Assembly (NCBI GenBank): GCA_040905425.1
Contig: JBBDRO010000051.1
Span: forward strand, 1 to 30,083
Direction: 5' to 3'
Length of the DNA: 30,083 nt
From: Gemmatimonadota bacterium
GTDB taxonomy: Bacteria; Gemmatimonadota; Gemmatimonadetes; Longimicrobiales; RSA9
Shown piece after piece: positions 6,180 through 29,553 of this stretch. Both the position numbers and the translations under genes were made by a program. Each line of letters starts with the position of its first letter. Position 1 is the first letter of the stretch. The notes under the pieces were generated by a model, which ran no database searches, had not been told where the DNA came from, and saw only the letters and a list, made by a program, of their open reading frames with translations.

Positions 6180-7400
6180 ATGCCGAGAGAGCGCAACCTC
6201 CGCAAGCATGGTCCTGCTGACGTAGCCCGGCGCGCCGCCGCGGTGCTGGTGCTCTCCGCCGCGCTCGGGGCGGGCGCCGCGGCCGCCCAGGCGCCGGCCG
6301 GGGAGCGCCCGGCGGCCACCTACTGGGTGTACGTGGGCGCCGAGTCGGCGGACCTCCTGCACCGGGTCCGCTTCGGCCCGGACGGGGCGGAAGTGGAGAA
6401 GACCATCCCGGCCGGGGTGCTGCCCACCGAGACCGAAGGCCCGCACGGCCTGCGCGTGGACGCCGCCGGCAAGTACCTGCACGTCACCACCGGGCACGGG
6501 CTCCCCTTCGGACAGTACTGGAAGTATGCGCTGGGGCCCGACACGCTGGTGGGCGCGCCGGTGGCGCTCGGTGACTTCCCGGCTACCCTGGACGTCACGC
6601 CGGACGGGCTCTACGCCTTCGTGGTGAACTTCAATCTGCACGGGGAGCACGTCCCGTCCAGCGTCTCGGTGGTCTACACGCCGGAGAACACCGAGGTGGA
6701 GCGCATCACCACCTGCACCATGCCGCACGGCGCCCGCATGAACCCGGCGGGTACGCGGCTCTACTCCGCCTGCATGATGGATGACCAGCTCGTGGAGCTG
6801 GACACCAACCTCTTCCAGGTGGCGCGCCGCTTCAGCGTCTCGGTGGGGGACGAGGGCCCCATCGAGGAAATGCACGACAACGCCATGCACGCCCAGCACA
6901 TGGCTGACCCCGCGCACGCCATGCAGCATGCCATGGAACACGGAGAGATGGCGGCGCCCACCTGCTCGCCCACCTGGGCGGAGCCCTCCCCCGACGGTCG
7001 CTGGGTGTATGTGGCGTGCAACAAGGCCAACACCATCCTGCAGATTGACGCGGAGGACTGGAGGCTGGAGCGTACGCTGGAGACCGGTACCGCGCCGTAC
7101 AACCTGGCCGCCACCCCGGACGGACGGCGCCTGGTGGCCACGCTGAAGAAGCAGGCCGCCGTGCAGGTCTTCGATCTGAGCACGGGGGAGAGCCTGGCCA
7201 CCATGCCCTCCACCACCACCGTCACGCACGGCGTGGTGGTCTCACCCGACTCGCGCTACGCCTTCGTGAGCGTGGAGGGGGTGGGCGCCGAGCCCGGCAA
7301 GGTGGACATCTACGACCTGGAATCCTTCGAGCGGGTGGCCAGCGTGGAGGTGGGGCAGCAGGCGGGGGGGATCGCGTTCTGGAAGATGGAGGCCCGCTAG
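6180..7400 (+). CDS. Exported YncE/YVTN-family beta-propeller protein with His/Met-rich insertion
   Basis: Repeats PHGLRVD, PATLDVTPDG, PHGARMNPAG, PTWAEPSPDGRWVYVACN, PYNLAATPDG, THGVVVSPDSRYAFV; hydrophobic signal ending AAAA|QA. Confidence 0.9.
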   Translation: MPRERNLRKHGPADVARRAAAVLVLSAALGAGAAAAQAPAGERPAATYWVYVGAESADLLHRVRFGPDGAEVEKTIPAGVLPTETEGPHGLRVDAAGKYLHVTTGHGLPFGQYWKYALGPDTLVGAPVALGDFPATLDVTPDGLYAFVVNFNLHGEHVPSSVSVVYTPENTEVERITTCTMPHGARMNPAGTRLYSACMMDDQLVELDTNLFQVARRFSVSVGDEGPIEEMHDNAMHAQHMADPAHAMQHAMEHGEMAAPTCSPTWAEPSPDGRWVYVACNKANTILQIDAEDWRLERTLETGTAPYNLAATPDGRRLVATLKKQAAVQVFDLSTGESLATMPSTTTVTHGVVVSPDSRYAFVSVEGVGAEPGKVDIYDLESFERVASVEVGQQAGGIAFWKMEAR

Positions 7401-7404
7401 GGCC

Positions 7405-9363
7405 CTAGAGTTCGCGCCAGTCCGCCTCGAGCACGCGGCGGTAGATCTCCCCCTGGATCAGGATCTCCACCAGCTCGCTGTCGAGCATGCCGTCCTTGGC
7501 TTCCATGGTGAGGATGTCCAGGGCGCGCTCGGCGGGGAGGGCCCGCTTGTAGGGGCGGTCGGAGGCGGTGAGGGCGTCGAAGATGTCCGCGATGGTCATC
7601 ATGCGCGTCTGCACGGGGATCTCCTCCCCGGTAATGCCGCGCGGATAGCCGCGGCCGTCCAGCTTCTCGTGGTGGCCGTAGGCAATGTCGGCCAGGTTGC
7701 GGAGGTCGTCGGTCCACGGGATCTCGCGCAGGAAGCGGTAGGTCTGCTCCACGTGGGACTCGATCTCCTTGCGTTCGTCCTCGTCCAGCGTGCCCCGGGG
7801 AATGCGCAGGAAGTGGAGCTCCTCGGGGCTCAGGAAGGGCGCCTCTACGCCGTCCGGTCGCGGATAGCGGCGCTCGGCGATGTCCCCCAGGATGGACGCG
7901 GCCTCCTCCGGTAGGACCGTGGGCTCGTTGGCCGTCTCGACCACCTCCCGGAAGCGATCGATCTCCTGCAGCTCGGCCTCGAACGCCTCCTCCAGGGAAT
8001 GTACGGCGTCCATGGCGGCGCCGGAGCGCAGCAGTTCGGCCTGGCGGCGCCAGAAGTCGGCCTCCGTGGTGCGGCGGATCAGATCGAAGCGCACGGCCAC
8101 GCGCTCGAAGAGCTGGGGCGGTAGCTTCTTGGCCTTGGTGAGCACGTGCTCACGCACGCCCACCTTGCCGAAGTCGTGAAGCATGGCGGCGTAGCGCAGC
8201 TCGCGCATCTGCTCGCGGCTGAAGCGCACATCCCGGTGGCGTCCGCTGCCGCCGCGCTGCACCGCCTCCGCCAGGTCGGTGGTGAGGGTGGCCACGCGCA
8301 CGCTGTGCCCCGCAGTGGTGGGGTCGCGTTGGTCGATGGCCGTCACGGCCGCCTTCACGAAGCTCTCGAAGAGCGTCTGGATCTGCTCGTAGAGGCGGGA
8401 GTTCTCGATGGAGACGGCCGCCTGGCCGGCCAGCGAGCGGACCAGCTGCAGCTCGTGCATGTCGTAGCTGGAGACGTGCGCGTCGGCCGCCTCCTCGCTC
8501 GTGATGCGGGCGTCCGGATCCGTCTTGCGGTTGATGAGCTGCACCACGCCGACCACGTCATCCTTGTGGTCCACCATGGGCACCACGAGCATGGACTTGG
8601 TGCGGTAGCCGAAGCGCTCGTCGAAGCTGCGATTGAAGCCGTAGGGCGCGTCCGCGGGCGGCTGGTAGGCGTCATCCAGCACCAGCGGCTCACCCGTGGT
8701 GGCGGCGTAGCCGGCCAGGCTGCTGGGGTCCACCGGCAGCGTGAACTCGTTGAAGGGCAGATCGGGCAGGGAGGTGTTCTCGGCCAGCTTGAAGCGGAGC
8801 CGCGTGCCGCCCTCCCCGTCGGCCTCGGCCAGGTAGAGGCTGCCGGCGTCACTGGCGGTGAGCCCCATGGCCTGGGAGAGGATCTTACGCAGCAGGCGAT
8901 CGGGGTCGCGCTCGGTCATGAGCGCCATGCCGATCTCGTGGAGTTGGGAGAGCTCGCCGCGGGAGCGCTCGAGCTCCGCCTGGGCGCGCTCCGCCGCCAG
9001 CCGGGAACCCGCCACCGTGAAAGCGTTGCGCAGCACGCGGAGCGCGACCTGCCCGTCCGTGGGCAGCGTGAAGAGGGCGGTGCCGGGCGCCTCGGCGGCC
9101 TCGGCTTCGGTGGCGGCCACGGCCACCACGCCCAGCGGGGGGGCAAAGTCGCGCGCCAGAACCCCCTCCAGCAGCACCACCGATGGCTCGCTCACACGCT
9201 CCGGCAGGTCGGCCACGTCGGCCAGCGGGCGCAGCTCCACCCCCTCGGCGGCCAGGATGGTCTCCAGCGCCCGGGCGGTGGGGCCGCCGGCGTGGTAGAG
9301 GACGGCGCGCGCGGTGGTGGACGCGGCCACGCCCGTCAACTCCGCTGCGGCGCCTTCACTCAC
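7405..9363 (-). CDS. GAF + HD-GYP domain metal-dependent phosphohydrolase
   Basis: GAF (SLAGYAATTGEPL..DDAY...FDERFGYRTKSMLVVPM...GVVQLIN), DPTTAGHSVRVA, LHDFGKVG, HHEKLDGRGYPRG, ADIFDALTASDRPYK. GTG start overlaps the upstream TGA. Confidence 0.92.
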   Translation of the reverse strand: MSEGAAAELTGVAASTTARAVLYHAGGPTARALETILAAEGVELRPLADVADLPERVSEPSVVLLEGVLARDFAPPLGVVAVAATEAEAAEAPGTALFTLPTDGQVALRVLRNAFTVAGSRLAAERAQAELERSRGELSQLHEIGMALMTERDPDRLLRKILSQAMGLTASDAGSLYLAEADGEGGTRLRFKLAENTSLPDLPFNEFTLPVDPSSLAGYAATTGEPLVLDDAYQPPADAPYGFNRSFDERFGYRTKSMLVVPMVDHKDDVVGVVQLINRKTDPDARITSEEAADAHVSSYDMHELQLVRSLAGQAAVSIENSRLYEQIQTLFESFVKAAVTAIDQRDPTTAGHSVRVATLTTDLAEAVQRGGSGRHRDVRFSREQMRELRYAAMLHDFGKVGVREHVLTKAKKLPPQLFERVAVRFDLIRRTTEADFWRRQAELLRSGAAMDAVHSLEEAFEAELQEIDRFREVVETANEPTVLPEEAASILGDIAERRYPRPDGVEAPFLSPEELHFLRIPRGTLDEDERKEIESHVEQTYRFLREIPWTDDLRNLADIAYGHHEKLDGRGYPRGITGEEIPVQTRMMTIADIFDALTASDRPYKRALPAERALDILTMEAKDGMLDSELVEILIQGEIYRRVLEADWREL

Positions 9364-10295
9364 CGGCGGCCAGCCCGATCGGCGGCCTGGAACGCCTCCG
9401 CGGCTCCCTCCAGGTCCCCGATGGCGTCCAGCGCCTCACCGCGCATGAGGTGCAGCAGGCGGCCGCCGGTGCCCTCGGCGGCCAGGCGCTCGAGCGCCTC
9501 CGCGGCGTCGTAGACCAGTCCAGCGTCCCGATAGACCACCGCGGCCACGAAGAGGCCGTCGTCCGCCGGGTCCAGCCCGGACGCGCTCATGGCTTCCATG
9601 ACGGCCTGGATGGCGGCGTAGCGCTCGGCGTCCAGCACGCGAAACTCCATCTGCTGGCCGATGCGGCCGGCGTCGGTGCCCACCACCCAGCTGTACGTCC
9701 CGCCGCGCTCCAGCGCGGGCGCGTCGGCCGGGTAGCTCCACACGGTGTCGGCGCCCGCCTCGAAGCGGACAGGCTGGCCGGGGGCGTCGGTGCGCCGCAG
9801 CATGATGGTGTAGGTGGTGGTGCCGGGCACGGAGTACCAGGTAAAGGTGGGGCGCGTCTCGTCCACGGCAATGCCGTTCCGGGGGGCAATGCCCGTGGCG
9901 GTGCCCTGCACGGGCCGGATCATGCCCTGCCGGTTGGGTTGGCGGGCGGCGTCCGTGGTGGCTACCTGCGCGATGGTGCGGGCCGTCTGGGCGTACAGGC
10001 CCGCGGGCTCACCGCTGGCCGGCTCCGCCACGGTCACGGCCTCCGACGCCGTCTCCATCTTGCCCGTGCGGTACATGAGGACGGCCTTGCCGCCGTCAGG
10101 CACGAGCACGCGGTCACCCGGCTCCAGGCTGAGGCCCACGGTGCCAGGGACCTTCTCCTCGGAGACCTTCTGGACCTCTACCGCGCCGCTCACCTTGACG
10201 AGCACCGCCGCCGGCTCGCGCGTCCAGGTGAACGCCGCCAGCAACGCCAGTCCCGTCATCATCGTGGCCGACACGAAGCGCTTCGTGCTACGCAT
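9360..10295 (-). CDS. Exported protein with FecR-like N-terminal beta domain and DUF928-like/TPR C-terminus
   Basis: Signal-like N-terminus; AVLVKVSGAVEV...GLSLEPGDRVLVPDGGKAVL (FecR-like); ETRPTFTWY, LERGGTYSWVV and YRDAGLVYDAAEAL match DUF928-type motifs. RBS GGAG upstream. Confidence 0.75.
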   Translation of the reverse strand: MRSTKRFVSATMMTGLALLAAFTWTREPAAVLVKVSGAVEVQKVSEEKVPGTVGLSLEPGDRVLVPDGGKAVLMYRTGKMETASEAVTVAEPASGEPAGLYAQTARTIAQVATTDAARQPNRQGMIRPVQGTATGIAPRNGIAVDETRPTFTWYSVPGTTTYTIMLRRTDAPGQPVRFEAGADTVWSYPADAPALERGGTYSWVVGTDAGRIGQQMEFRVLDAERYAAIQAVMEAMSASGLDPADDGLFVAAVVYRDAGLVYDAAEALERLAAEGTGGRLLHLMRGEALDAIGDLEGAAEAFQAADRAGRR

Positions 10296-10322
10296 GGCTC
10301 CATCCTTTCAGGCTGTCGCGGC

Positions 10323-12509
10323 TCACTTGACCTGCCGCCGCTCGACGAAATCCCAGTCCTCGGGAGGCGGTTCCACCAGGTAACCGCGCGACCGCTCCAG
10401 GTAGAGCGCCGCGGGACCATCCCCCGGCGCTACTTCCAGTGCGGCGTTGAAATACTCTACGGCCATCTCGAAATCTCTGTCCCGGAACGCGGCCAGGCCC
10501 CGCGCGTACTGCTCCAGGAGGTCCTCCTCCAACGGCGTCGGCTCGTCGGCCAGCGCCAGCAGTTCGTAGACGGTCACCGGCTCCGCCTTGCCGTACACGG
10601 CCAGGCGGTCCAGCTCGCGCACCTGGATGGCGTCCCCGGCCGCCGCCCGCGTCTGCTCGGCGATCATGATGGAGACGCCGTAGCTCTTGCAGGCGGGCTC
10701 CAGGCGGGCGGCCAGGTTTACCGCGTCGCCCAGCGCCGTGTAATCGAAGCGCTTCTGCCCGCCGATGTTACCCACCACCGGCTCACCCGAGTTCACGCCG
10801 ATGCGCATGGCCAGCGCCGGCCAGTCCGGATCGCGCGCCTGCCACTCGGCGTTCAGCTGGCCGAGCCGCGCCTGCATGCGGAGCACCGTACGGCAGCCGC
10901 GCAGCGCGTGGTCCGGATAGGATGCCGGCGCCCCGAAGAGCGCCATGATGGCATCACCGATGTACTTGTCCAGCGTGCCCTTTTCCTGGAAGATGATCTC
11001 CGCCATCTCGTCCAGGTACTCGTTCAGCACGGACACCAGCCGTTCCGGCGAGAGCCGCTCCGACATGGAGGTGAAACCCGCCACGTCACTGAAGACGATC
11101 GTGATGCTGCGCCGCTCACCGCCGAGCTTCAGGCGCGAGGGGTCCGCCACCAGCTCGTCCACCACCCCGGGCGGCACGAACTTGGAGAATGCCCCCCGGA
11201 TCATGCGCTTGTCCCGCCCCTCCACGATCGAGACGTAGCCGGCCGCGCCCATGAGGGACAGCCCCGCCGAGAGCGCGGGCGCGATCATGGGCAGCACCAG
11301 CCGGCCCTGGTAGAAGACCAGCAGGCCGCCCCACCAGAGCCCCGCCACCGCCAGCAGCGCTGCGCCGGCGCCCCATTTGACACCGCCCACGAAGGTGACG
11401 CCCGCCACCAGCGCGGCCACGCCGAACAGCAGCAGGAGCTTCCACCCCAATCCCAGCGGGATCAGGTAATCACCCGCCAGCAGGTTCTGCAGGGCGTTGG
11501 CGTGGATCTCCACGCCGTACGTCCAGCCGTAGATCTCCCCCTCGTCGGGGCCGTACTCCGCCGGCACGCCCTCCACGCCGGTGCCCTCCAGGAGCGCCCC
11601 GCGTCGGGGCGCGTCGTAGAACGGCGAGCGGAAGCGCTCCGAATCGTGGAAACCGCTGCCGAGCAATACCGCCTTGCCGTCCATCCAGGAGGAGAGCGCC
11701 GGGTTTCGCCCCAGAAAGGACACCGCCTCCACCCCGTAGGCCGGATAGGTCCAGAACGCCCCGTCATCGCGCCCCTCGATGCTGGGCGGCCCGGCAAAGA
11801 GCACCGGCACGTTCAGCGGTCCCGCCTCCGGCAGCGGGCGATAGCGCTCCGGCATGCCCGGCACGTCCAGGCGCCCGCTCGCGCGCGTGGCCACCAGCAG
11901 CGAATCCAGGTCCCGCCCCTCGGCCAGCGCCCAGAGCGCCAACGCGAAGCCGGGCACCAGCGTGCCGTCCGCCTGCACGGTGACGAGCTGCGCGTCCCGC
12001 GCCGTCTCGTAGGGCGTGGGGATGTCCGCGGACGCCACGGCCGCGGCCGCCTCCGCGAAGTACGGATCCGGCGGGAGCAGGCGACGGTCTTCCTCCTCAC
12101 CCACCATGGGCGCCACCAGCACCACGTTCCCGGCCGCCGCCATGGCCGCCCGCAGCAGGGAGTCTCCATCCTCGCCGCGCACCGGCTCCTGGCGCCGGTC
12201 CAGGTAGACGTCCAGGCCGATGGCGCGGGCACCGTTGGCCGCCGCCGCCTCCACCAGGCGCGCCAGCGGCGCCCGCGGATATGGCGACAGGTAGGGCCAC
12301 TCCTCCACCGACGCACTGTCAAACAGCACCAGCACCACACCCGTGCTATCCCGGTTGGCCCTGACCGTGGAGCGCACGCGGTAGTCCACGGTGGCCAGTT
12401 CGGGCTGGGCGAAGATGGCCCCGAGGATCTGCACCTCCGTGAGCCCGTACGCCGCGCCCGCCGCGGCCGCCGCGATCACGGCGGCCACGGCTGTCCGGCG
12501 AAGGCGCAT
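10323..12509 (-). CDS. CHASE2-domain transmembrane class III adenylate cyclase with C-terminal TPR-like helix pair
   Basis: CHASE2 (PYPRAPLARLV..GARAIGLDVYL, DGKAVLLG, GVEIHANALQNLL), three TM helices, cyclase motifs FSDVAGFT, DKYIGDAIMA, MRIGVNSG, DYTALGDAVNLAARLE. Lys plus Thr specificity residues indicate ATP substrate (class IIIb). Confidence 0.95.
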   Translation of the reverse strand: MRLRRTAVAAVIAAAAAGAAYGLTEVQILGAIFAQPELATVDYRVRSTVRANRDSTGVVLVLFDSASVEEWPYLSPYPRAPLARLVEAAAANGARAIGLDVYLDRRQEPVRGEDGDSLLRAAMAAAGNVVLVAPMVGEEEDRRLLPPDPYFAEAAAAVASADIPTPYETARDAQLVTVQADGTLVPGFALALWALAEGRDLDSLLVATRASGRLDVPGMPERYRPLPEAGPLNVPVLFAGPPSIEGRDDGAFWTYPAYGVEAVSFLGRNPALSSWMDGKAVLLGSGFHDSERFRSPFYDAPRRGALLEGTGVEGVPAEYGPDEGEIYGWTYGVEIHANALQNLLAGDYLIPLGLGWKLLLLFGVAALVAGVTFVGGVKWGAGAALLAVAGLWWGGLLVFYQGRLVLPMIAPALSAGLSLMGAAGYVSIVEGRDKRMIRGAFSKFVPPGVVDELVADPSRLKLGGERRSITIVFSDVAGFTSMSERLSPERLVSVLNEYLDEMAEIIFQEKGTLDKYIGDAIMALFGAPASYPDHALRGCRTVLRMQARLGQLNAEWQARDPDWPALAMRIGVNSGEPVVGNIGGQKRFDYTALGDAVNLAARLEPACKSYGVSIMIAEQTRAAAGDAIQVRELDRLAVYGKAEPVTVYELLALADEPTPLEEDLLEQYARGLAAFRDRDFEMAVEYFNAALEVAPGDGPAALYLERSRGYLVEPPPEDWDFVERRQVK

Positions 12510-12516
12510 GCGCCGC

Positions 12517-14337
12517 CTACCGCGGCGTGATCGTGTAGACCACCGAGGCCGTGGCCCAGTCCTCCACCGGTACGGCGCCCGCCGGGGCGCGCAGCGCGGC
12601 GCGCAGCGCTACCGCCACCTCGGCGGCCTGCGCGGGGGCGGCGTCGGCGCTGCCGTCGGTGAAGGGCAGCTCCAGCGGCCGCTCCGTGACGATGGCGCGC
12701 ACGATGCCGCGGCCCGCCGGGGCCTGCGCCTCGTACATGTAGCCCGCGTCGCGCGGCGGCAGGCTCACCGTCTGGCCCGCCTCCACGCGCGTGCTCGGGT
12801 AGAGGATGGCCACCTGCCCGTTGGTGCCCAGGTCCACGATGGTCAGATAGCCGGCGCGCGCCGAGTGGGCGCTGAAGCCGATCTCGTCTCCCACGCGGAA
12901 CTCGGTGCGCCCGCCCGTGAAGCCAAAGTCCACGGCAAACGGCCGGGCCGGGTTGTCCAGCGCGGCCAGGCGGTGGGCGGCCAGCTCCCGGCGGAGCGCC
13001 GCGGCCACCGCCACCGCGTCCATGAGCGGCTGCAGATTTCGCGTGGCGCCGTCCAGCCCCAGGATGGCGTAGCCGTCCTCGGCGGGGCGCACGAGCAGGT
13101 GCGCGAAGTCCCGCGCGCCGGGCACGAGCACCACGCCCTGGTCCAGCCGCAGCGCGCTCGCCACCTCGGCCCGCGTGGCCGGTGCCAGACCCGCCACCGA
13201 GACGCGCAGCTCGGCGGGCGGATAGGCGTAGGCCACCAGGCGCGCCCGGTCACCGGCGGAGACGGAGCCGCCCTCGACCCGCGCCTGCGCTCGCTCGCCC
13301 GCCACGCTCGTGATCACCAGTTCGGCGCCGCCCGCGCGGAAACGCGAGCCCACCGTGATGCCGGCCGCGCTGCCACCCGCCAGTTCGGCGGTGCCGTCCT
13401 CGACAGCGGTCACGGGAACGAAGCCGGCCTCCGCCACGTCACCCGCACCGGGCAGGGAGAAAATCGGGGCCGCGGCTTGATGAGAGATCTGCGGTTGCTG
13501 CGCGAAACGGGCGCGCTTCATGTCTTCCACGGTAGCCTGGAAGACCGCCTGGTAGCTGGCGCGACGCGGCGCCTGCCAGAGGTTGCGCACGAAAGCGGTG
13601 GTGAAGGCGCCGCCGTAGGTGGAGGCGCCTCCGTCCGCGGCGGGCCATTCTACGTCCACGGCCACCTCGTCCGCCCGCGCGGCCGCCAGCTCCAGCCACG
13701 GCGCCCGCTCCGGCGCCACGGCCGGCACGGCGGCCGTCTCGGCGGGCCGCTCCACGTCACTGCGGACGTCGCGCGCCAGGTTGCGCGGGCGGGCGAACGG
13801 CGTCACGGCGCGCGTGCCCGTCCCCGAGCTGCAGTTGTCCAGGAACACCACCACGTTCTCCTTGGCGGTGGGCAGCGCGTGCAGCCAGCCGTTCAGTTCG
13901 TCGTCCAGGATGTCCGTGTCCGTGTTGCCCTTCATGACGTCGGTGGGGCAGATGGTCTCGTCCAACCCGTCCTCCTCGTCGCCGTCCAGGTCCCAGGCCT
14001 GGGAGCCGTGCCCGGCAAAGAAGAAGAAGACCAGGTCCCCCTCGGCCACCACCGACGGCAGCCAGTCCGTGAACTCCCGCTCGATGCGCGCGCGCGTGGC
14101 GTCCAGGTCCAGGACCATCTTCACGTTGTTGTCCGCGAAGCCCATGCGGCCCACCAGGACGTCGCGCATGCGGCGGGCGTCGTAGACGGCGCCGGGGAGG
14201 TCCCCGCCGATCTCGTCGCCGAAATTGGCGTAGTCGCTGATGCCGATCAGCAGCGCCCACTTCGTGGGGGCCTTGTGGGGGATGGCGCCCAGAATGAGCG
14301 CCGCGCCCGCCAGCACCACCAGATGTCTGATTCTCAC
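12517..14337 (-). CDS. Exported metacaspase-like peptidase C14 with C-terminal DUF4384-like domain
   Basis: Short signal-like N-terminus, KWALLIGISDY, catalytic FAGHGSQ and FLDNCSSG, acidic DGDEEDGLDETICPTD, p10 region ELAAARADE..GGAFT; C-terminal FRVGDEIGF...GYLTIVDLGTNGQVAILYP (DUF4384-like). GTG start overlaps the upstream TGA. Confidence 0.92.
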   Translation of the reverse strand: MRIRHLVVLAGAALILGAIPHKAPTKWALLIGISDYANFGDEIGGDLPGAVYDARRMRDVLVGRMGFADNNVKMVLDLDATRARIEREFTDWLPSVVAEGDLVFFFFAGHGSQAWDLDGDEEDGLDETICPTDVMKGNTDTDILDDELNGWLHALPTAKENVVVFLDNCSSGTGTRAVTPFARPRNLARDVRSDVERPAETAAVPAVAPERAPWLELAAARADEVAVDVEWPAADGGASTYGGAFTTAFVRNLWQAPRRASYQAVFQATVEDMKRARFAQQPQISHQAAAPIFSLPGAGDVAEAGFVPVTAVEDGTAELAGGSAAGITVGSRFRAGGAELVITSVAGERAQARVEGGSVSAGDRARLVAYAYPPAELRVSVAGLAPATRAEVASALRLDQGVVLVPGARDFAHLLVRPAEDGYAILGLDGATRNLQPLMDAVAVAAALRRELAAHRLAALDNPARPFAVDFGFTGGRTEFRVGDEIGFSAHSARAGYLTIVDLGTNGQVAILYPSTRVEAGQTVSLPPRDAGYMYEAQAPAGRGIVRAIVTERPLELPFTDGSADAAPAQAAEVAVALRAALRAPAGAVPVEDWATASVVYTITPR

Positions 14338-15311
14338 GGTCCCGCCTCCTCGTGTCCGGGGGCCAGTAGCCCCGCGCTCACCGTCAGCTCCTGCCCTTCC
14401 GCCGCCGCGTGCACTTCCAGCGTGCCGCCGCGCCGGGCCACGTCATCGCGCAATCGCTCCACCGCGCGGTCCAGTTCGTCATCCGAGCGCTCCGGCGCAT
14501 GGTGGAACAGGTACAGCCGGCGCACGCCCGCGCGCTCCGCGAGCGTCACCGCGTCCTCGAAACTGCTGTGTCCCCAACCCACATGCGCCTCATACTCCTG
14601 GCTGGTGTACATGGCGTCGTGGAAGAGCACGTCCACGCCGTCCAGGAACCGCACCAGCTCGTCGTACCAGCCCTCCGCCACCGGATAGTGCCCGCCGCGC
14701 AGCTCGTTGTCCGGGATGAAGGCCAGCCGGGCCTCTCCCGCCGAGATGCGGTACCCGTACGTGTGCGCAGCGTGCCGCACGCGCAAGGCGTCCACCGCCA
14801 CGCCATCCACACGCGGATCCTCCTCGTCCAGGTGGTGGAAGCTGAGCTGCGCCGCCACCGCCTCGTAGGGGATGGGGAAATACACCGGCCCCATCTGTCC
14901 CGCCACCAGCGTGGGCATGTCCACGTCCCCCTGCCGGGCGCCGTGCAGCCGCAGCCGCGCCTCCGGATCGTAAAGCGGTCCGAAGAACGGCAGCCCCTGG
15001 ATGTGGTCCCAGTGGAAGTGGGTCAGAAAGATGTCCACGTCCACCGACCGGCCGGGCACGGCCAACCTGTCCCCCAGACGCCGGATGCCGCTGCCCGCAT
15101 CGAAAATCAGGGAACGGCCCTGCGGCGTCTCCACGTGGAGACACGATGTGTTCCCGCCGAAGCGGGCCGTGTGGGGCCCCGGACTCGGCAGAGAACCGCG
15201 CGTGCCCCAGCAGCATGCGCGCAGCACACGTTGTGCGGCACGGCCCGCGCGGATGGGCACAGCGGCATCTCCGGGCGAGGCCGATGCATCCCGCTCTCGA
15301 TCTCGCACCAT
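14334..15311 (-). CDS. MBL-fold metallo-hydrolase (RNase Z / cyclic-nucleotide phosphodiesterase-like)
   Basis: WGTRGSLPSPG...GGNTSC, FDAGSG, THFHWDHIQGLPFF (HxHxDH), WGHS, LFHHAP. Start is ATG 15311 or GTG 15227; the 15413 start in the ORF track is probably too long. Confidence 0.88.
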   Translation of the reverse strand: MVRDRERDASASPGDAAVPIRAGRAAQRVLRACCWGTRGSLPSPGPHTARFGGNTSCLHVETPQGRSLIFDAGSGIRRLGDRLAVPGRSVDVDIFLTHFHWDHIQGLPFFGPLYDPEARLRLHGARQGDVDMPTLVAGQMGPVYFPIPYEAVAAQLSFHHLDEEDPRVDGVAVDALRVRHAAHTYGYRISAGEARLAFIPDNELRGGHYPVAEGWYDELVRFLDGVDVLFHDAMYTSQEYEAHVGWGHSSFEDAVTLAERAGVRRLYLFHHAPERSDDELDRAVERLRDDVARRGGTLEVHAAAEGQELTVSAGLLAPGHEEAGP

Positions 15312-15519
15312 GGATCGGCTTCGGGAGTAAACGTGATCGGCCTGGCGGCCGCGTAGCAGGGAGCTCCGGGAGAGAGCCTCTCCAAGATGGGGCGCCGGGG
15401 GGCGGGGAAGCAAGGCCCACGCCAGGACCGCCCCCGAGAGGGCACCCTTTCACCCGGCCGCGGCGGCGTCTACATTGGGCAGGGCAGCAAACCCACCAAC
15501 CCCTCCCGGATTCAAAGGT

Positions 15520-16686
15520 ATGGCAGCGGTCAAAGCCGAGTTTCCGATCGAGCAGGTGGTCAAGATGCTCGACAAGGTGCCTCTCTTCGAGGGGCTTCCG
15601 ACCAGCGACCTGGAGCGCATCGCCGCGCTCGTGCGCGGCCGGGAAGTGGCGGAGGGCGAGCAGCTCTTCCGCGAGGGGGACGCCGGCGACCGCTTCTACA
15701 TTGTCCATTCCGGCGCGGTGGAGATCCTGAAGGAGCGGCCGCGCGGTGATCACGAGCGCCTGGCCGTCAAGCGCGCGGGTGAGGCGTTCGGCGAGATGGC
15801 GCTGCTCACCGACGCGCCGCGCTCGGCCACCGTGCGGGCGCTGGAGGCCACGCGGTTGCTGAGCGTCTCGCGCGCGCAGTTCGACGAGTTGCTGGGCGGC
15901 GAAGGGCTGGCCGTGCGCCTCATGAAGGGGCTGGCCCGCGCGCTGCGGGCGCTGGACGTGCGCTTTGCCGCGCGCGAGGCGGGCGGCGGTGGGGACGCGC
16001 TGAAGGGCTTCAACCGCTACCTGCAGAAGGGTCTCCTGCCGCGCGCGGCGCCGGGCGTGGACGGCTACGACGTGGGCGGCGGGTGCGCGGTGGACGAGGG
16101 GGACGTGAGCCAGTCCCTGTGGGACGCCATCGAGCTGCCCGGGAACGCAAAGCTGCTGGCGGTGTTCGACGTGAAGGGGGAGACGCTTCCCCCGGCCCAT
16201 CTGCTGGCCGTGGCCCGCGCTCTGCTACGCGAAATCGCCGAGCGTGAAGAATCGCTCGAGGCCATCCTGACACGCCTCAACGAGGCCGTGGCCCGGAGCC
16301 TCTTCGAGGGTCTGGACCTGTGCGTGCAGGTGCGCCTGGCGCACATCACGCCCGCCGGCCTGCGCTGCGCCGCGGCCGCCGAGGATCCGATTCTGGTGGT
16401 CCGGGCCGGTGGGGACGTGGAGGAAATGGCTCCCGACGGTCCGCCGCTGGGGATCCTGCCCAGCTTCGATTACGGCGCCACGGCGGTAACATGCCAGCCT
16501 GGTGATACGCTGCTGCTGCTCTCGGAAGCCGACCGACGGCTGGCGCGCGGCGCCGCCGACCTCCTGGCCCGCAGCGCGAAAACGCCCGCGGCCGAGACGG
16601 CGGGGGCCCTGCAGGGCGCGCTGCTGCGGGCCGCGGAGGCCCGGCAGGGCAAGGACATCTGCTTCATACTGGCACGCAAGAAATAG
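15520..16686 (+). CDS. Cyclic nucleotide-binding domain fused to a degenerate SpoIIE/PP2C-like domain
   Basis: LFREGDAGDRFYIVHSGAVEI and FGEMALLTDAPRSATVRA (intact phosphate-binding cassette); C-terminal LQKGLLP, LLAVFDVKG, GPPLGILP, PGDTLLLLSE, KDICFIL follow the SpoIIE pattern. ATG 15520 preferred over TTG 15475. Confidence 0.88.
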   Translation: MAAVKAEFPIEQVVKMLDKVPLFEGLPTSDLERIAALVRGREVAEGEQLFREGDAGDRFYIVHSGAVEILKERPRGDHERLAVKRAGEAFGEMALLTDAPRSATVRALEATRLLSVSRAQFDELLGGEGLAVRLMKGLARALRALDVRFAAREAGGGGDALKGFNRYLQKGLLPRAAPGVDGYDVGGGCAVDEGDVSQSLWDAIELPGNAKLLAVFDVKGETLPPAHLLAVARALLREIAEREESLEAILTRLNEAVARSLFEGLDLCVQVRLAHITPAGLRCAAAAEDPILVVRAGGDVEEMAPDGPPLGILPSFDYGATAVTCQPGDTLLLLSEADRRLARGAADLLARSAKTPAAETAGALQGALLRAAEARQGKDICFILARKK

Positions 16687-16700
16687 AAGGAAGGCTGTAC

Positions 16701-16997
16701 ATGCCCACGGAGAAGGACGTCCGGCGCGCCCTCAGGCGGGTCAAGGACCCTGAGCTGAACCTGGACCTGGTGGTCCTGGGGCTCATCTACGACATCGACA
16801 TCCACGACGAGCACGTGAAGGCCACCATCTCCCTCACGAGCCCGTTCTGCCCGGCGGCGAACCAGATCATCGAGGACACCAAGAGCGCCATCGAGGGCGT
16901 GGAGGGTGTGAGCACCGCCGAGGTGGAGCTCACCTTCGATCCCCAGTGGACGCCCGAGCGCATCGACCCCGTGATCCGGGCGTCACTCGGCATCTGA
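16701..16997 (+). CDS. sufT: DUF59/SufT-family metal-sulfur cluster assembly factor
   Basis: VKDPELNLDLVVLGLIYDI, LTSPFCPAA and ELTFDPQWTPE are the DUF59 signature (DPE..T..C). RBS AAGGAAGG. Confidence 0.9.
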   Translation: MPTEKDVRRALRRVKDPELNLDLVVLGLIYDIDIHDEHVKATISLTSPFCPAANQIIEDTKSAIEGVEGVSTAEVELTFDPQWTPERIDPVIRASLGI

Positions 16998-17007
16998 GGC
17001 CGCCCTC

Positions 17008-17805
17008 ATGGAGAAGAACGTGGCGGACATCGAGCTGAATACGCGGGAGGCGGGGGAGGGTGACACCATCCTCTTCATCCATGGCTTCCCGTTCGACGGC
17101 GCGCTCTGGGAGCGGCAGCTGGCGGCGCTGCCGCCCGGTTGGCGGGGGCTGGCGCCCGACCTGCGCGGCTTCGGCCAGAGCCCGATGGGCAACGAATCCG
17201 TGCACTCCATGGAGCTGCTGGCCGACGACCTGGCCGCGCTACTCCGGGGCAGGGGCGTCGAGGAGGCCGTCATCTGCGGGCTCTCCATGGGCGGCTACGT
17301 GGCCTTCGCGCTGCGTCGGCGCCACCCGGAGCTGGTGCGCGCCCTGGTCCTGGCCGACACCCGCCCGGGCGCGGATAGCGCGGAGGGGCGCCAGAACCGC
17401 GAACGGCTGGCCGGCGCGGTGCGCACCGAGGGTGTGGCGCCCGTGGTCAACGCCATGCTGCCCAAGCTGGTCTCCATGGCCACGCGCGTGGAGCGGCCGC
17501 AGGTGGTGGAGGAGATCCGGGCCATGATGGAGCGGCAGCCGCCCGAGGGCGTGGCCCGCGCGCTGCTGGGCATGGCCGGGCGCCCGGACGCCGGCCCCGG
17601 CCTGTCCCGCATCGACGAGCCCGTGCTCGTCCTGGTGGGGGAGGAGGACGCCATCACGCCGCGCGGCGAGGCGCAACTCATGGCGCGCGCCATCCGCGGT
17701 GCGCGCATCGAAATCATCCCCGAGGCCGGGCACGTCTCCAACCTGGAGGCGCCGGACGCCTTCAACCGCGCGCTGGCGGGCTTCCTGAACGGCGTGCGGG
17801 GCTGA
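17008..17805 (+). CDS. Alpha/beta-fold hydrolase (enol-lactonase/esterase-like)
   Basis: IHGFP oxyanion motif, PDLRGFGQS, GLSMGG nucleophile, GEEDAIT acid, AGHVSNLE His. Confidence 0.92.
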   Translation: MEKNVADIELNTREAGEGDTILFIHGFPFDGALWERQLAALPPGWRGLAPDLRGFGQSPMGNESVHSMELLADDLAALLRGRGVEEAVICGLSMGGYVAFALRRRHPELVRALVLADTRPGADSAEGRQNRERLAGAVRTEGVAPVVNAMLPKLVSMATRVERPQVVEEIRAMMERQPPEGVARALLGMAGRPDAGPGLSRIDEPVLVLVGEEDAITPRGEAQLMARAIRGARIEIIPEAGHVSNLEAPDAFNRALAGFLNGVRG

Positions 17806-17813
17806 GCAGCCGG

Positions 17814-20387
17814 TTACTCCTCCATCATGTCGAGCTGGTCGGCGGCGCTGCTGGACGCGGCCGCCGCGGCAGACGCGTCTCCTTCGGGGGTCTCGTCCCC
17901 TGAGCCGGCCGCCGTGTCATCACCGGCCGCCCCGCTCGCCCCCGCCGCCCCGTCTCCCTCGCTGGCTACCCGCGCTACCTCCACCACCCGGTCCTCACCC
18001 TCCAGCGCCACCACCCGCTTGCCCTGTGTGGCCCGGCCCTGCACGGGGATCTCGTCGGCGGTGGCGCGCAGCGCTGCGCCCCTGGCGGAGAGCACCATCA
18101 GCTCATCCCCGGGGAGGAGCTCCTTGGCCCCCACCAGGGGACCGGTCTTGGTGCTCACGTCCAGCGTCACGGTGCCCAGGCCGCCGCGCTTCTGCACCGG
18201 GTAGTCCCCGATGGGCGTCCGCTTGGCGAAGCCGCGGGCCGTCACGCAGCACAGGGTGGCGTCGCGGCGCACCACCACCATGCCCACCACCTCGTCGCCG
18301 CCGCGCAGGTTGATGCCCCGCACGCCCTGCGAGACCCGGCCGGTGAGCGGGACGTCATTCTCGGGGAAGCGGATGGCCCGCCCCTTCGAGGTGACCAGCA
18401 CCACGTCATTGCTGCCGTCGGAGAGCTGCACGTCCAGTAGCCGGTCCCCGTCCTGCACCTTGATGGCGGCAATGCCGCCGGCGCGGATGTTGGCGTACTG
18501 GTCCAGGCCCGTGCGCTTCACCGTCCCGCCGGCCGTGAGGAAGAGCAGGGAGCGCGCCTCGTCGAATTCGGCCACCGGCGCCAGCGCCGCCACGCGGGAG
18601 CCCTTCTCCATGGTGAGGACCTGTGCCAGGGCGCGCCCGCGGCTGCTGGGCCCGCCCTCGGGCAGCTCCAGCACGGAGATGGCGTGGGCCTGCCCCTGGT
18701 CGGTGAAGAAGACCAGCGTGTCCGTGGTGTTGGCCACGAACACGTGCTCCAGGAAGTCATCCTCGTGGCGGTCCATGCCGGCCATGGCCCGGCCGCGGTT
18801 CATGCGCCGGCGGTAGAGCGCCAGCGGGACGCGCTTGATGTAGGACTGGTGGCTGAGTGAGACCACCACCTGCTCCTCGGCCACCAGGTCCTGGACCTCG
18901 AACTCCTCGGCCTGGTCCGTGATGGTGGTGCGCCGCTCGTCACCGAAGCGCTCCACCACGTCGTCCAGCTCGGCAATCAGCACCTCCAGCTGACGCTCCT
19001 CCGAGCGCAGGATGGCCTCCAGCTCGCGGATGAGCTTCTTCAGCTCGCGCAGGCGCGCCTTCAGCTCCTCCGTCTCCAGCGCGGTGAGCCGGCCCAGACG
19101 CATGTTCAGGATGGCGCGCGCCTGGATCTCCGAAAGCTCGAACTTCTTCTGCAGGGTGCGGCTGGCGTCGTCCTGATCGCTGGCCTTGCGAATGATGCGG
19201 ATGACGGCGTCGATGTTGTCCAGCGCCACCAGCAGCCCCTCGGCCACGTGCGCTTCGGCGCGCGCCTCCTCCAGGTCGTGGCGCGCGCGCCGCTGGATGA
19301 CGTCCAGGCGGTGGTCCCGGAAGCGCTCCAGCATCTCCTTCAGGTTCAGCTCGCGCGGCACGCCGTTGTCCAGCGCCAGCATGATGGCGCCGAAGGTGGC
19401 CTGCATGTAGGTGCCCCGGTAGAGCACGGCCAGCGTCTTCGTCACGTTGGCGCCGCGCTTCAGCTCCAGCACCAGGCGCATGCCGTCGCGATCCGATTCG
19501 TCGCGCAGGTCGGAGATGTCATCGATCTTCCGGTCCCGCGAGAGTTTGGCAATCTGCTCGATGACCTTGGCCTTGGAGACGCCGTACGGGATGGCGGTGA
19601 CCACGAGTTGCTCCTTGCCGCCGCGGAGCGCCTCCTTGACTACCACCGCACGCATGACGATGCGTCCCCGCCCGGTGCGGTACGCGTCGCGGATGCCGTC
19701 GCTGCCCAGGATGTAGGCGCCGGTGGGGAAGTCGGGGCCCGGCACGTGGTCCATCAGCTCTTCGACGGGGCACTCCGGATGGGCCACCAGGTGCCGCACG
19801 GCGGCGGCGATCTCACGCAGGTTGTGCGGCGGGATGTTGGTTGCCATGCCCACGGCAATACCGCTGCTGCCGTTGACCAGCAGGTTGGGGAAGCGGGCGG
19901 GCAGGACCTTCGGCTCCCGCAGCCGGTCATCGAAGTTGGGCACGAAGTCCACCGTGTCCCGGTCGATGTCGGCCAGCAGTTCGGTGGCCAGCTGCGTGAG
20001 GCGCGCTTCCGTGTAGCGGTAGGCCGCGGCGTTGTCCCCGTCGATCGAGCCGAAGTTGCCCTGCCCGTCGATGAGCGGGTAGCGCAGCGAGAAGTCCTGC
20101 ACCATGCGCACCATGGCGTCGTAAACCGCCGAGTCCCCGTGCGGGTGGTATTTGCCCAGCACGTCACCCACTACCGTGGCGCTCTTCTTGTGCGCCCGCG
20201 TGGGCAGCAACCCGGCCTCGTGCATGGCGTACAGGATGCGCCGGTGCACCGGCTTCAGGCCGTCCTTCACGTCGGGCAGCGCCCGCTGCACGATCACGCT
20301 CATGGAGTAGTCCAGGAAGGAGTCCTGCATCTCCTCCTCGATGAGCCGTGGCAGCACCCGCTCCCGCCTCGTAGCCATCGCCACCAT
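17814..20387 (-). CDS. gyrA: Type IIA topoisomerase subunit A (GyrA/ParC); lacks a canonical GyrA-box, so possibly the Topo IV subunit
   Basis: [39 protein letters not shown], catalytic [10 protein letters not shown], six beta-pinwheel blades and an acidic tail. RBS GGAGG 9 nt before ATG 20387. Confidence 0.93.
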
Positions 20388-20575: not shown

Positions 20576-21241
20576 TCAGTGCGCCGGGCCGGCGTCCGCG
20601 GAGGTGGCCACCGGGTAGCCGCGCTCGCGCGCATAATCCGCCAGGGCGCCACGCAGGATGCGGCGGCCGCGGAAGAGGCGGCTCTTGAGCGTGCCCAGCG
20701 GGACGCTGAGGCGCTCGGTGGCGTCGGCGTAGGGCAGCTCCTGCACGTCGCACAGGAGCACCGCTTCGCGGAAGTGGTCGGGAATGCGTTCGATCTCCTG
20801 CAACACGCGATGGCGCACGGCCACCGCCATGAGGCGCTCCTCGGGATCCCGGGGCGGCGCGCCGGTCAGCAGCGGCCGCGCTTCCGGCGCCTGCCGCTCG
20901 TGCGTTTCGTCCAGGCCGCCGGCCGCGCGCAGCATGACCTCCCGCCGCCGCCGCTCCCGCTGGCGATCCCGCAGGAAGGCGTTCCGGCAGATGGTGAAGA
21001 GCCAGCTGCGCGCCCGCGTCCCCGGCGTGAAGGTCTCCCAGGCGCGAAAGGCGCGCAGGTAGGTCTCCTGGACCAGGTCGTCGGCGTCGCTGGTGCTGTG
21101 GCACAGGCGGCGGGCGAAGCGCTGGACGGCGTCCAGGTGGGGCAGGGCCTCACGCTCGAAGGAGGCGGCCGGGTGGTCCGGCTCGCGGTGGAGGCGAACC
21201 GCGATGGTGGAAGCGGGGAATACGTCGTTTCCTGCCTGCAT
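20576..21241 (-). CDS. ECF-type RNA polymerase sigma-70 factor
   Basis: Region 2 FEREALPHLDAVQRFARRL...DADDLVQETYLRAFRAW...SWLFTICRNAF; region 4 IPDHFREAVLLCDVQELPY...PLGTLKSRLFRGRRIL. Start ATG 21241 (GGAGA upstream) or 21274/21280. Confidence 0.92.
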   Translation of the reverse strand: MQAGNDVFPASTIAVRLHREPDHPAASFEREALPHLDAVQRFARRLCHSTSDADDLVQETYLRAFRAWETFTPGTRARSWLFTICRNAFLRDRQRERRRREVMLRAAGGLDETHERQAPEARPLLTGAPPRDPEERLMAVAVRHRVLQEIERIPDHFREAVLLCDVQELPYADATERLSVPLGTLKSRLFRGRRILRGALADYARERGYPVATSADAGPAH

Positions 21242-21287
21242 TGTCTCCGGCCGCGTCGATGTGTTCCGATTCATCCCCATATAGAGT

Positions 21288-21299
21288 TGAAACGTTTCA
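21288..21299. promoter_or_regulatory. Perfect 12-bp palindrome resembling a LacI-family operator
   Basis: TGAAACGTTTCA in an AT-rich patch between the TPR gene and the ECF sigma start; central CG flanked by AAA/TTT fits LacI/GalR operators. Confidence 0.45.
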
Positions 21300-21380
21300 G
21301 TCGCGGATTCTGAGACACCGCCGGCCGGGAAGGGCCGCTGGCCGACGACGCTGCTGACCGGCGCGGGCGCCTGGTACTGC

Positions 21381-21695
21381 TCAGTCCCAGTCCTCCAGCA
21401 CCTCCTCGAATTCGGCCGCCATGGTGGGGTGGCCGTGGCGCTCGGCTTCCTGGACGCCGCGCTGGTACGCGGCGCGCGCTTCCTCGTGGCGGCCGAGCTG
21501 GCGCAGGGCGTGGCCCAGCCGCCCCCAGGCGTTGCCCTCGTCCTCGGCCAGCGCCAGGTAGGCGCGCAGGTGGTCGGCCGCCGCCTCCCAGCGCCCGGCC
21601 TTCTCCATCTCGGCGGCCAGGCCGAAGCGCACGCGGGTGTCGTTGGGGTCACGCTCGAGCATGTGCTGCAGGCTGTGGATGCGGGCGTCTTCCAT
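21381..21695 (-). CDS. Small tetratricopeptide-repeat protein
   Basis: 104 aa with two TPR units (DPNDTRVRFGLAAEMEKAGRWEAA; AWGRLGHALRQLGRHEEARAAYQRG). Confidence 0.85.
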   Translation of the reverse strand: MEDARIHSLQHMLERDPNDTRVRFGLAAEMEKAGRWEAAADHLRAYLALAEDEGNAWGRLGHALRQLGRHEEARAAYQRGVQEAERHGHPTMAAEFEEVLEDWD

Positions 21696-29393: not shown

Positions 29394-29553
29394 GGCTGGG
29401 CCTTGGTCAACAGGAATCGGCGGCATGAAAAACGGGCGGCGTGCGGGCCGCGCCGCCCGGCCCCCCTTACGAGCAGGGGCTGACCCGCCTAATCTGTGCC
29501 GCGGCGCGGGGCTGCGGCAACCCGGCGCGCATTCCACGCACGAGCGAGCGTTC

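Follow-up and report, generated by a model that had tools for sequence, protein, structure and literature searches.

What could bring an exported homologue of caspases, a CHASE2 receptor adenylate cyclase and several predicted cyclic nucleotide-handling proteins together in one tightly packed run of bacterial genes? The question is raised by a six-gene locus (positions 7405-16686) of a Gemmatimonadota bacterium (Longimicrobiales; RSA9), contained in a stretch of 30,083 nucleotides (nt) that was analysed as a whole and is here called the window (assembly GCA_040905425.1, contig JBBDRO010000051.1, positions 1 to 30,083 of the forward strand; G+C content 68-75%). Our findings speak for a chromosomal cyclic AMP (cAMP) signalling operon built of two layers, a core and an input cassette, a reading that we hold to be probable rather than secure. 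The first layer would consist of a cyclic nucleotide (cNMP)-binding protein, of Crp type in sister families and replaced here by a divergently encoded cNMP-binding/PP2C-like protein, together with an MBL-fold hydrolase and a GAF-HD-GYP protein. The second layer would consist of the exported orthocaspase, the CHASE2 cyclase and an MtxA-like protein, whose genes lie between those of the MBL-fold and HD-GYP proteins.

Five open reading frames (ORFs) run co-directionally on the minus strand. In order of transcription they encode an MBL-fold metallo-hydrolase (hereafter MBL; 14334-15413, a maximal ORF of 359 amino acids, aa), an exported orthocaspase (12517-14337, 606 aa), the CHASE2 receptor adenylate cyclase (10323-12509, 728 aa), an MtxA-like periplasmic protein (9360-10295, 311 aa) and a GAF-HD-GYP protein (7405-9363, 652 aa); a cNMP-binding/PP2C(SpoIIE)-like protein (hereafter cNMP-PP2C; 15475-16686, 403 aa) is encoded divergently on the plus strand. 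Both 4-nt overlaps within the minus-strand run read GTGA on the coding strand, and the remaining gaps measure 7 nt (12510-12516) and 27 nt (10296-10322). An initial annotation of the locus, made from the sequence alone, had described this same layout, and its coordinates and junctions agree with ours throughout. Of the domains that it named, all exceeded their Pfam cut-offs in a hidden Markov model (HMM) check save those proposed for the 311-aa protein, in which DUF928 fell under its cut-off and FecR found no match. Between the maximal ORFs of the two divergent genes lie 61 nt (15414-15474, assigned to neither strand), a span that widens to approximately 208 nt (15312-15519) if ATG starts are taken for both. 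The MBL start is uncertain, as homology begins only near residue 60 of the 359-aa ORF; the sequence suggests that the ATG at 15311, or a later codon, is the probable start. The cNMP-PP2C start is likewise uncertain, with the ATG at 15520, preceded by AAAGG, as the probable one.

The same order of genes is found again, at 37-63% identity, in Gemmatimonadota genomes and in metagenome contigs, and seven relatives of the window's genome show it at 44-63% identity; in one contig (L117) the whole neighbourhood is copied at 95% identity. With the MtxA-like gene as anchor, a pattern scan that covered one genome per species returned 36 loci, all titled as Gemmatimonadota or Longimicrobiales metagenome-assembled genomes. 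Among the loci that could be assessed for each gene, the cyclase was directly upstream in 34/34, and the caspase was present in 29/29, each time directly upstream of the cyclase/MtxA-like pair. The MBL gene was found in 20/21 (the exception being L047), the HD-GYP gene downstream in 31/34 (exceptions L044, L047 and L062) and the divergent cNMP-PP2C gene in 15/19 (exceptions L050, L061, L064 and L065). With the caspase as anchor instead (71 metagenome loci, at least 42% identity), the assessable loci held MBL in 57/61 cases, the cyclase in 28/31, and the MtxA-like and HD-GYP genes without exception (15/15 and 13/13). Nine more distant caspase-DUF4384 homologues (28-41% identity) had none of these operon neighbours (MBL 0/5, cyclase 0/6). 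Being recurrent across so many genomes, the arrangement is more than chance; the co-location of homologues elsewhere, on which the initial annotation had let its scheme depend, is thus strongly borne out.

The two layers differ widely in their distribution. The MtxA-like profile matched 7/301 genomes of the phylum, all from two families of one order, whereas MBL was present in 199/301 (a tally that includes the unpublished G097, G187 and G210; 196/298 when these are left out), and the core is near-universal in several families; a separate tally, 24/41, includes the unpublished G018. Loci from other families, 19/19 of them, have a cNMP-binding gene directly upstream of MBL on the same strand. 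Three of these sister-family operons were viewed in detail (L100 7225-14308, L101 7500-11990 and L105 7406-12512): each encodes a Crp-type regulator (identified by Pfam in two loci and in the third by 72% identity to one of these), MBL, a CsgG/LpoB-like TPR lipoprotein and a GAF-HD-GYP protein, with MlaE, MlaF and MlaD placed before the latter in L100 only. Their content hints at an envelope-related role for the core. Three genomes with such an operon hold exactly one class III cyclase each, with no CHASE2 domain. The lipoprotein was compared with the caspase and MtxA-like families as a possible homologue and rejected (hhalign probability 0.2-0.3%). The same operons adjoin a gene for a peptide-chain release factor (with PCRF and RF-1 domains), accompanied in L100 by an lnt-like gene.

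Cassette-free versions also occur closer to the window. Four relatives from its own order lack the cassette and have the MBL and HD-GYP genes side by side; one core-only version (L107, in G251) is flanked by the same gyrA and sigma factor neighbours as the window. One genus has the MBL-HD-GYP pair diverging from genes for a FecR protein, an outer-membrane barrel and a CHASE2 cyclase (L029 8260-13233, in G034, and L028, in G032). The FecR protein of this variant carries a signal peptide (Pfam E 7.6e-17), and the barrel, of approximately 700 aa, has the look of an outer-membrane beta-barrel, with a C-terminal Phe and an Ig-like N-terminal domain. A 606-aa ORF of L029 (10347-12167), considered as a replacement for the caspase, was rejected as a wrong-frame artefact of high-G+C DNA, the real gene being that of the barrel. 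Given the contrast between 199/301 and 7/301, and the cassette-free variants, what we see looks like an old, phylum-wide core of cNMP-binding protein, MBL and GAF-HD-GYP, into which a lineage-restricted input module was apparently inserted between MBL and HD-GYP. The self-contained unit of the initial annotation therefore gives way to an older core with an inserted cassette, and two contigs, taken up below, carry the caspase with no cyclase at all.

Several components have readily assigned roles in cAMP turnover. By the rules for class III cyclases, two metal-binding Asp residues and a transition-state Asn/Arg pair are expected, with Lys plus Thr/Ser (or Asp) in the adenylate type and Glu/Cys-type residues in the guanylate type. 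In the window's cyclase and its orthologues, both metal Asp (D475, D519), K515, N598 and R602 are found in 33/33 sequences, and position 591 is occupied by Thr in 15 and by Ser in 18. Its designation as the cAMP writer, already made in the initial annotation, thus appears sound on sequence grounds. The same applies to the cNMP-PP2C protein as predicted cAMP reader: cNMP_binding (84.7 bits) and SpoIIE (73.7 bits) are both recognized, and the phosphate-binding cassette residues G106, E107, R116, S117 and A118 are kept in 17/17 orthologues, which upholds the earlier proposal and makes it a sound one. For MBL (Lactamase_B_2, 66.5 bits), the WGTRGS and HFHWDH motifs are invariant in 23/23 sequences. 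Among 120 longer MBL relatives listed, 106 are fused to GAF (often with REC) and 13 to cNMP_binding, 3 of these 13 also carrying GGDEF; one is a GAF-HD-GYP fusion (P0324) and one is joined to a caspase-DUF4384 protein (five proteins were checked individually). Such fusions to cNMP-binding or GAF domains make it credible that MBL, a predicted phosphodiesterase, erases cAMP, and this role gains support from the cNMP-binding gene found directly upstream of it across the phylum. From the locus it may further be supposed that the MBL hydrolases with a fused GAF or cNMP-binding domain, a large family, are bacterial cyclic-nucleotide phosphodiesterases.

We thus propose the following working of the system. 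The CHASE2 cyclase would make cAMP on a periplasmic cue, with the MtxA-like protein as its periplasmic co-sensor, a role suggested by their strict adjacency and by published clusters of MtxA with a CHASE2 cyclase and of FecR and TPR proteins with a CHASE2 cyclase. A periplasmic location is expected for the caspase, for the CHASE2 domain and for the MtxA-like protein. There, the orthocaspase, of predicted Arg/Lys type, would modulate a step of the signalling, the simplest way being to process the MtxA-like protein or some other exported partner; that it modulates such a step at all is a tentative part of the model, which we consider possible but less likely than not. Readers of the cAMP formed would be the cNMP-PP2C protein and the GAF domain of the HD-GYP enzyme, which would then hydrolyse cyclic di-GMP (c-di-GMP), a link drawn by analogy with Tlr0485. 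MBL would degrade cAMP, as its fusions and neighbours suggest.

The receptor itself has a clear architecture: a first transmembrane helix, a periplasmic CHASE2 domain (81.6 bits, cut-off 26.3), three transmembrane helices, a class III cyclase domain (Guanylate_cyc, 86.2 bits, cut-off 21.9) and a weak C-terminal TPR. The hydrophobic segments fall at residues 6-24, ahead of CHASE2, and at 359-377, 381-399 and 404-422, behind it. Its presumed partner, the 311-aa protein, comprises a signal/anchor helix (residues 4-20), an N-terminal beta-domain (30-83), a helix (99-113), an unstructured linker, an FN3-like sandwich (135-220) and a TPR region (223-309), with an AlphaFold2 (AF2) model of predicted local distance difference test (pLDDT) 88.9 and predicted TM-score (pTM) 0.81. 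This model resembles 4z29, the C-terminal domain of MtxA (Foldseek TMt 0.64; Z 10.9, 161 residues aligned, root-mean-square deviation (rmsd) 3.7), Z values that are middling, and the sandwich and the TPR are, taken singly, common folds; 4z29 was the only solved chain seen to span both. In a protein atlas, a look-alike cluster annotated as MtxA scored 0.95, which we take as a lead only. The protein has the two-domain Ig/FN3-like and TPR fold of the MtxA family, and it has the CHASE2-cyclase neighbour (34/34 loci). Because fold and genomic context match MtxA, it is, to judge from the model, better described as MtxA-like, the likeness being structural and contextual. In the initial annotation it was labelled FecR/DUF928-like, a name that does not hold: DUF928 (PF06051) scored 14.9 bits against a cut-off of 26 (E 0.023), and FecR (PF04773) matched 0/56 family members. 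Thirteen of the 56 touch DUF928 at E<=0.1 (best 2.2e-4), and a distant relationship of the two families is possible on this sequence evidence. Among candidates tried and rejected, the FecR protein of L029 aligned to the family with an hhalign probability of 1.4%, and a PDB-sequence profile search with the family gave only spurious nitric-oxide-synthase and TPR matches, with no MtxA among them. More than 300 relatives were found; among the 120 listed, all with a source name are called "hypothetical protein". Two paralogues are orphans, at L069 9457-10368 (G304:C75, a second copy, 37% identity) and at L066 6606-7301 (G266:C46, 29% identity).

Within the linker of the MtxA-like protein, one segment stands out. 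R122-Q-G-M-I-R-P128 (codons 9912-9932, minus strand), a candidate docking or processing site, is invariant in 56/56 sequences, against a mean column identity of 51%, and lies in coil, where the model has its lowest confidence (pLDDT 63-69). Among more distant homologues, at least 90% retain Arg127. The orphan paralogue of L069 still has QGMIRP.

The neighbouring protease is a member of the metacaspase/orthocaspase group by HMM, by its His-Cys dyad and by its metacaspase-like fold. An N-terminal hydrophobic segment (residues 1-19, mean hydropathy 1.75) is followed by a metacaspase-type domain (22-300; Peptidase_C14, 84.5 bits), a small beta-barrel (304-370), a further domain and a C-terminal DUF4384 beta-sandwich (52.7 bits). 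The dyad, His110 and Cys169, and Asp167 are each found in 23/23 orthologues. The AF2 model (pLDDT 82.6) best matches Arabidopsis metacaspase 4 (Z 24.1, 248 residues aligned, rmsd 3.4), followed by metacaspase 9 (Z 22.7) and Geobacter GSU0716 (Z 22.1). The C-terminal domains are beta-sandwich or Ig-like modules of a kind typical for surface proteins, and an atlas search with this half returned DUF4384 clusters only, with scores of at most 0.86. Asp35 and Asp167 (the latter in a D-x-C arrangement), candidate acidic residues of the S1 pocket, are conserved in 23/23; by comparison with metacaspase structures, and with support from PMC6426788 for such a pocket role, these may be the residues that give Arg/Lys specificity. 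A metagenome protein of 917 aa (P0280) reads as a single MBL-caspase-DUF4384 fusion; it may be a real membrane-spanning fusion or a frameshift or assembly error, an ambiguity that arises because the window's MBL and caspase genes overlap by GTGA.

A caspase that processes its neighbour would be consistent with three observations, namely the adjacency of the genes (29/29), the Arg/Lys-type pocket residues and the invariant, Arg-containing exposed linker. In its most specific form, the proposal is that the caspase cuts the MtxA-like co-receptor at or near R122-QGMIR-P128 and that the product switches CHASE2, thereby setting cAMP and, via GAF-HD-GYP, c-di-GMP. So detailed a chain of events is unlikely to be right in every link. 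If true, CHASE2 sensors would gain their first demonstrated activation mechanism, and exported bacterial homologues of caspases their first role in signalling.

Not all observations fit the two-layered cAMP operon and its proposed working, and those that weigh against it touch most of its parts. On the side of the linker, Arg122 is invariant only in the cassette type, and Arg127, the most widely kept residue, has Pro next to it; an Arg-Pro bond is a poor one for trypsin-like cleavage. No sequence match to Pfam MtxA_IG-like/MtxA_C or to 4z29 was found with the window protein, the 56 family members or a profile search, and the orphan MtxA-like paralogues sit among unrelated housekeeping genes, with neither CHASE2 nor caspase as neighbour. 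Among the proteins of the core, the nearest solved relatives of MBL are RNase Z/ElaC phosphodiesterases, and the NCBIfam equivalog "cyclic nucleotide-degrading phosphodiesterase" reached 52.2 bits where 400 are required; the substrate might be pGpG or a different phosphodiester. In the PP2C domain of the reader (approximately 215-400), the acidic motifs of DxxG/TDG type are not uniform across the 17 orthologues: at the usual TDG position the window has SEA, and in some orthologues the Asp of DVKG is missing. The PP2C/SpoIIE domain may be a pseudo-phosphatase in part of the family. Lastly, L166 and L170 encode MBL, caspase and HD-GYP with no cyclase or MtxA-like gene; these loci, and the published CHASE2-cyclase clusters that lack a caspase, indicate that the caspase is not a general requirement for CHASE2 signalling.

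These last loci bear most directly on the alternative that survives best. The caspase may be no input at all: it would have substrates of its own (e.g. in envelope or matrix remodelling) and be co-expressed with the signalling genes, or serve as one of their outputs, leaving the MtxA-like protein as sole partner of CHASE2. A caspase placed between MBL and HD-GYP with no cyclase/MtxA-like pair (L166, L170) is what one would then expect to meet. Sister families, moreover, hold the CsgG/LpoB-like TPR lipoprotein, with or without MlaEFD, in the very same position, the C-terminal beta-sandwich/Ig-like modules are typical of surface proteins, and the CHASE2-cyclase clusters already in print have, as far as their available descriptions go, no caspase (PMC9239204; PMC4439547). 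Yet wherever cyclase and MtxA-like gene could be assessed together, the caspase was directly upstream (29/29), and the four genes overlap or lie at most 27 nt apart. We regard a caspase outside the signalling path as somewhat unlikely.

The preferred reading, of a core with an inserted input cassette, also departs from the initial annotation in the role given to the GAF-HD-GYP protein. There, extracytoplasmic proteolysis by the caspase was thought to generate or release a ligand of CHASE2, with cNMP-PP2C as the only reader and both MBL and HD-GYP degrading cAMP. In this protein HD_5 (116.4 bits) and GAF (58.6 bits) are well recognized; the HD and HHE..DG.GYP residues are kept in 31-32/32 orthologues save for the Asp of DG, which is D in 14, N in 15 and S in 3. 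Residues 1-135 have no Pfam match, and an insertion of approximately 90 aa (approximately 425-512) separates the HD and GYP halves. Its best solved match is PmGH (4mcw, E 1.7e-37), and the GAF domain matches the cNMP-binding GAFs of PDE5, PDE2 and CyaB2 (E 1e-16 to 5e-11). Eleven GGDEF matches in the window's genome indicate that c-di-GMP signalling is available there. On the resemblance to PmGH, the likeness of the GAF domain to known cNMP-binding GAFs and the precedent of Tlr0485, we consider it more likely, by analogy, that the protein is a second cAMP reader that hydrolyses c-di-GMP than that it is a second eraser. Of the two hydrolases once held to erase cAMP, then, MBL keeps that predicted function, by its fusions and the cNMP-binding gene upstream, and HD-GYP probably does not. 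The ligand scheme can still point to all six genes being conserved together, to phosphodiesterases occurring in both hydrolase folds and to MBL and HD-GYP being neighbours even where the cassette is missing, with P0324 fusing the two. However, HD-GYP enzymes are described for c-di-GMP (bioRxiv 2021.11.05.467447, in its available part) or for 3'3'-cyclic GMP-AMP (3'3'-cGAMP), one solved relative being named a 3'3'-cGAMP phosphodiesterase, and cAMP is given as the substrate of none of those described; the studied cAMP-responsive GAF-HD-GYP enzyme takes cAMP as an activator, according to the text available. Contigs with a caspase and no cyclase likewise tell against it. All in all, a released ligand with one reader and two erasers seems quite improbable.

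Could the messenger be cyclic GMP (cGMP) or another nucleotide? Neither the cNMP-binding nor the GAF domain can be assigned to cAMP or cGMP by sequence alone, and the best solved matches of the latter include the cGMP-binding PDE5 and PDE2; the Lys and Thr/Ser pair, found in 33/33 cyclase orthologues and of adenylate type by the class III rules, makes any messenger other than cAMP very improbable. Least probable of all is an anti-phage or abortive-infection system of Pycsar/CBASS kind, in which the cyclase would signal infection and the caspase kill: some defence systems do use caspase-like proteases as effectors, and PADLOC models for PycC cyclases, caspase and cNMP-binding effectors match at domain level, but these matches are generic and fall short of a Pycsar or CBASS assignment, three of the six proteins (MBL, MtxA-like and HD-GYP) match no model, the caspase bears a signal for export but lacks a nucleotide-binding domain, several families have the core almost universally, and the same chromosomal neighbours (alpha/beta hydrolase, gyrA) are kept across genera at 45-63% identity, which argues for vertical descent rather than a defence island.

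The region between the divergent genes gave few clues to regulation. A promoter and terminator scan of 6900-17000 found no sigma-70-like promoter there; the scan returned one promoter-like and three terminator-like sites, all intragenic and near the shuffle expectation. Crp-box-like sites, searched with a hand-written pattern, numbered 2 in the window against 5.9 expected, with none in the divergent region. On the plus strand, 321 nt past the cNMP-PP2C gene, lies an alpha/beta-hydrolase gene (17008-17805), whose position is kept in several relatives (e.g. L023-L026, L034, L036, L037, L039, L043 and L119) and which may belong to the divergent transcription unit. Further on, the minus strand carries gyrA (17814-20387) and a sigma-70 family gene (20576-21652) with an N-terminal extension of approximately 160 aa. 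A 934-aa protein of the aconitase family is encoded at 27072-29876, also on the minus strand, with Aconitase_C (265-311) ahead of the main Aconitase domain (502-917), an order that we take to be typical of aconitase B. Long ORFs at 9183-12530 (+), 12391-14688 (+) and 14590-16200 (-), of 1115, 765 and 536 aa, run antisense to, or in another frame of, the real genes and were rejected as genes, stop-poor frames being usual in high-G+C DNA.

How does this operon compare with systems already known? The statement of the initial annotation that no characterised system was known to have this full composition stands insofar as the operon was not found in print: searches of the literature on CHASE2 with caspase, on Gemmatimonads with metacaspase and on CHASE2, CHAT and FecR combined, with subscription journals outside their scope, gave no description of it. 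It has to be tempered in that related CHASE2-cyclase clusters are published, and CHASE2-DUF928 gene neighbours were also found in the literature. The nearest counterpart is that of magnetotactic bacteria, in which a gene for a CHASE2 adenylate cyclase comes after mtxA (PMC4439547). Like the window protein, MtxA is exported, measures approximately 310 aa, has a signal peptide and an N-terminal part ahead of an Ig/FN3-like sandwich and TPR, and is encoded next to a CHASE2 cyclase. Trypsin takes off the first 141 residues of MtxA (PMC4439547), and this cut shows an exposed linker at the place equivalent to the linker of the window protein. In the available text of that report, deletion of mtxA gave no phenotype and the function of MtxA is given as unknown; unlike the window, the cluster as published there contains no caspase, MBL or HD-GYP (PMC4439547). 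In Campylobacterota, a four-gene cluster, described by bioinformatics only, comprises a CHASE2 adenylate cyclase, a cAMP phosphodiesterase, a FecR-domain protein of the outer membrane and a TPR protein, and its authors suggested transfer to other phyla (PMC9239204). It shares with the window a CHASE2 cyclase, a phosphodiesterase and exported partners of FecR/TPR type, and the Gemmatimonadota genus with FecR, barrel and CHASE2 cyclase next to MBL-HD-GYP resembles it as well. The window differs in having no Pfam-detectable FecR and in adding an exported caspase, GAF-HD-GYP and the cNMP-PP2C reader. In Burkholderia, LysM-FecR genes have CHASE2 histidine kinases as neighbours (PMC5192318). Periplasmic partners of CHASE2 thus form a recurring theme, and for this reason the partner role is given here to the MtxA-like protein.

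The output side has precedents too. Tlr0485 of Thermosynechococcus is a cAMP-activated GAF-HD-GYP c-di-GMP phosphodiesterase (Enomoto et al. 2020, as cited in bioRxiv 2021.11.05.467447 and PMC8846402). As in Tlr0485 and PmGH, GAF precedes HD-GYP in the window protein, which keeps the catalytic motifs and differs in its additional N-terminal region of approximately 135 aa and in the approximately 90-aa insertion between the HD and GYP halves. In Dictyostelium, GbpA and GbpB are class IIb MBL-type phosphodiesterases activated by cNMP binding (PMC11988041). Their MBL catalytic domain works with cNMP-binding domains, as the fusions of its relatives and the neighbouring gene suggest for the window MBL; in the latter the regulator is a separate gene, and the two are likened by domain logic rather than by sequence comparison. 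As for the caspase, fusion proteins are known in which a cytoplasmic caspase is joined to CHASE2 as the extracellular sensor of the same protein (PMC3501461; PMC8195603). There as here, a caspase-family protease is linked with a CHASE2 sensor, yet in the window the caspase is separate and exported, and CHASE2 drives a cyclase.

According to the available literature the cue sensed by CHASE2 domains is unknown, and in the literature searched no signalling role was found assigned to exported bacterial caspase homologues. It is here that the locus may prove useful: a tightly packed, widely conserved unit joins a CHASE2 cyclase to an exported caspase of predicted Arg/Lys type and to an MtxA-like partner whose exposed linker is invariant. 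With an easily measured output (cAMP, and possibly c-di-GMP), CHASE2 activation becomes testable in a heterologous host, and natural comparisons are at hand in the versions with the core only, with core and caspase, with the full cassette and with FecR and an outer-membrane barrel. Overall, set beside the known systems, the parts are of known kinds, and the theme of a CHASE2 cyclase with partner and phosphodiesterase is already described bioinformatically; what is new is the exported orthocaspase within such a cluster, the phylum-wide core of MBL and GAF-HD-GYP with a cNMP-binding gene, and the series of natural variants.

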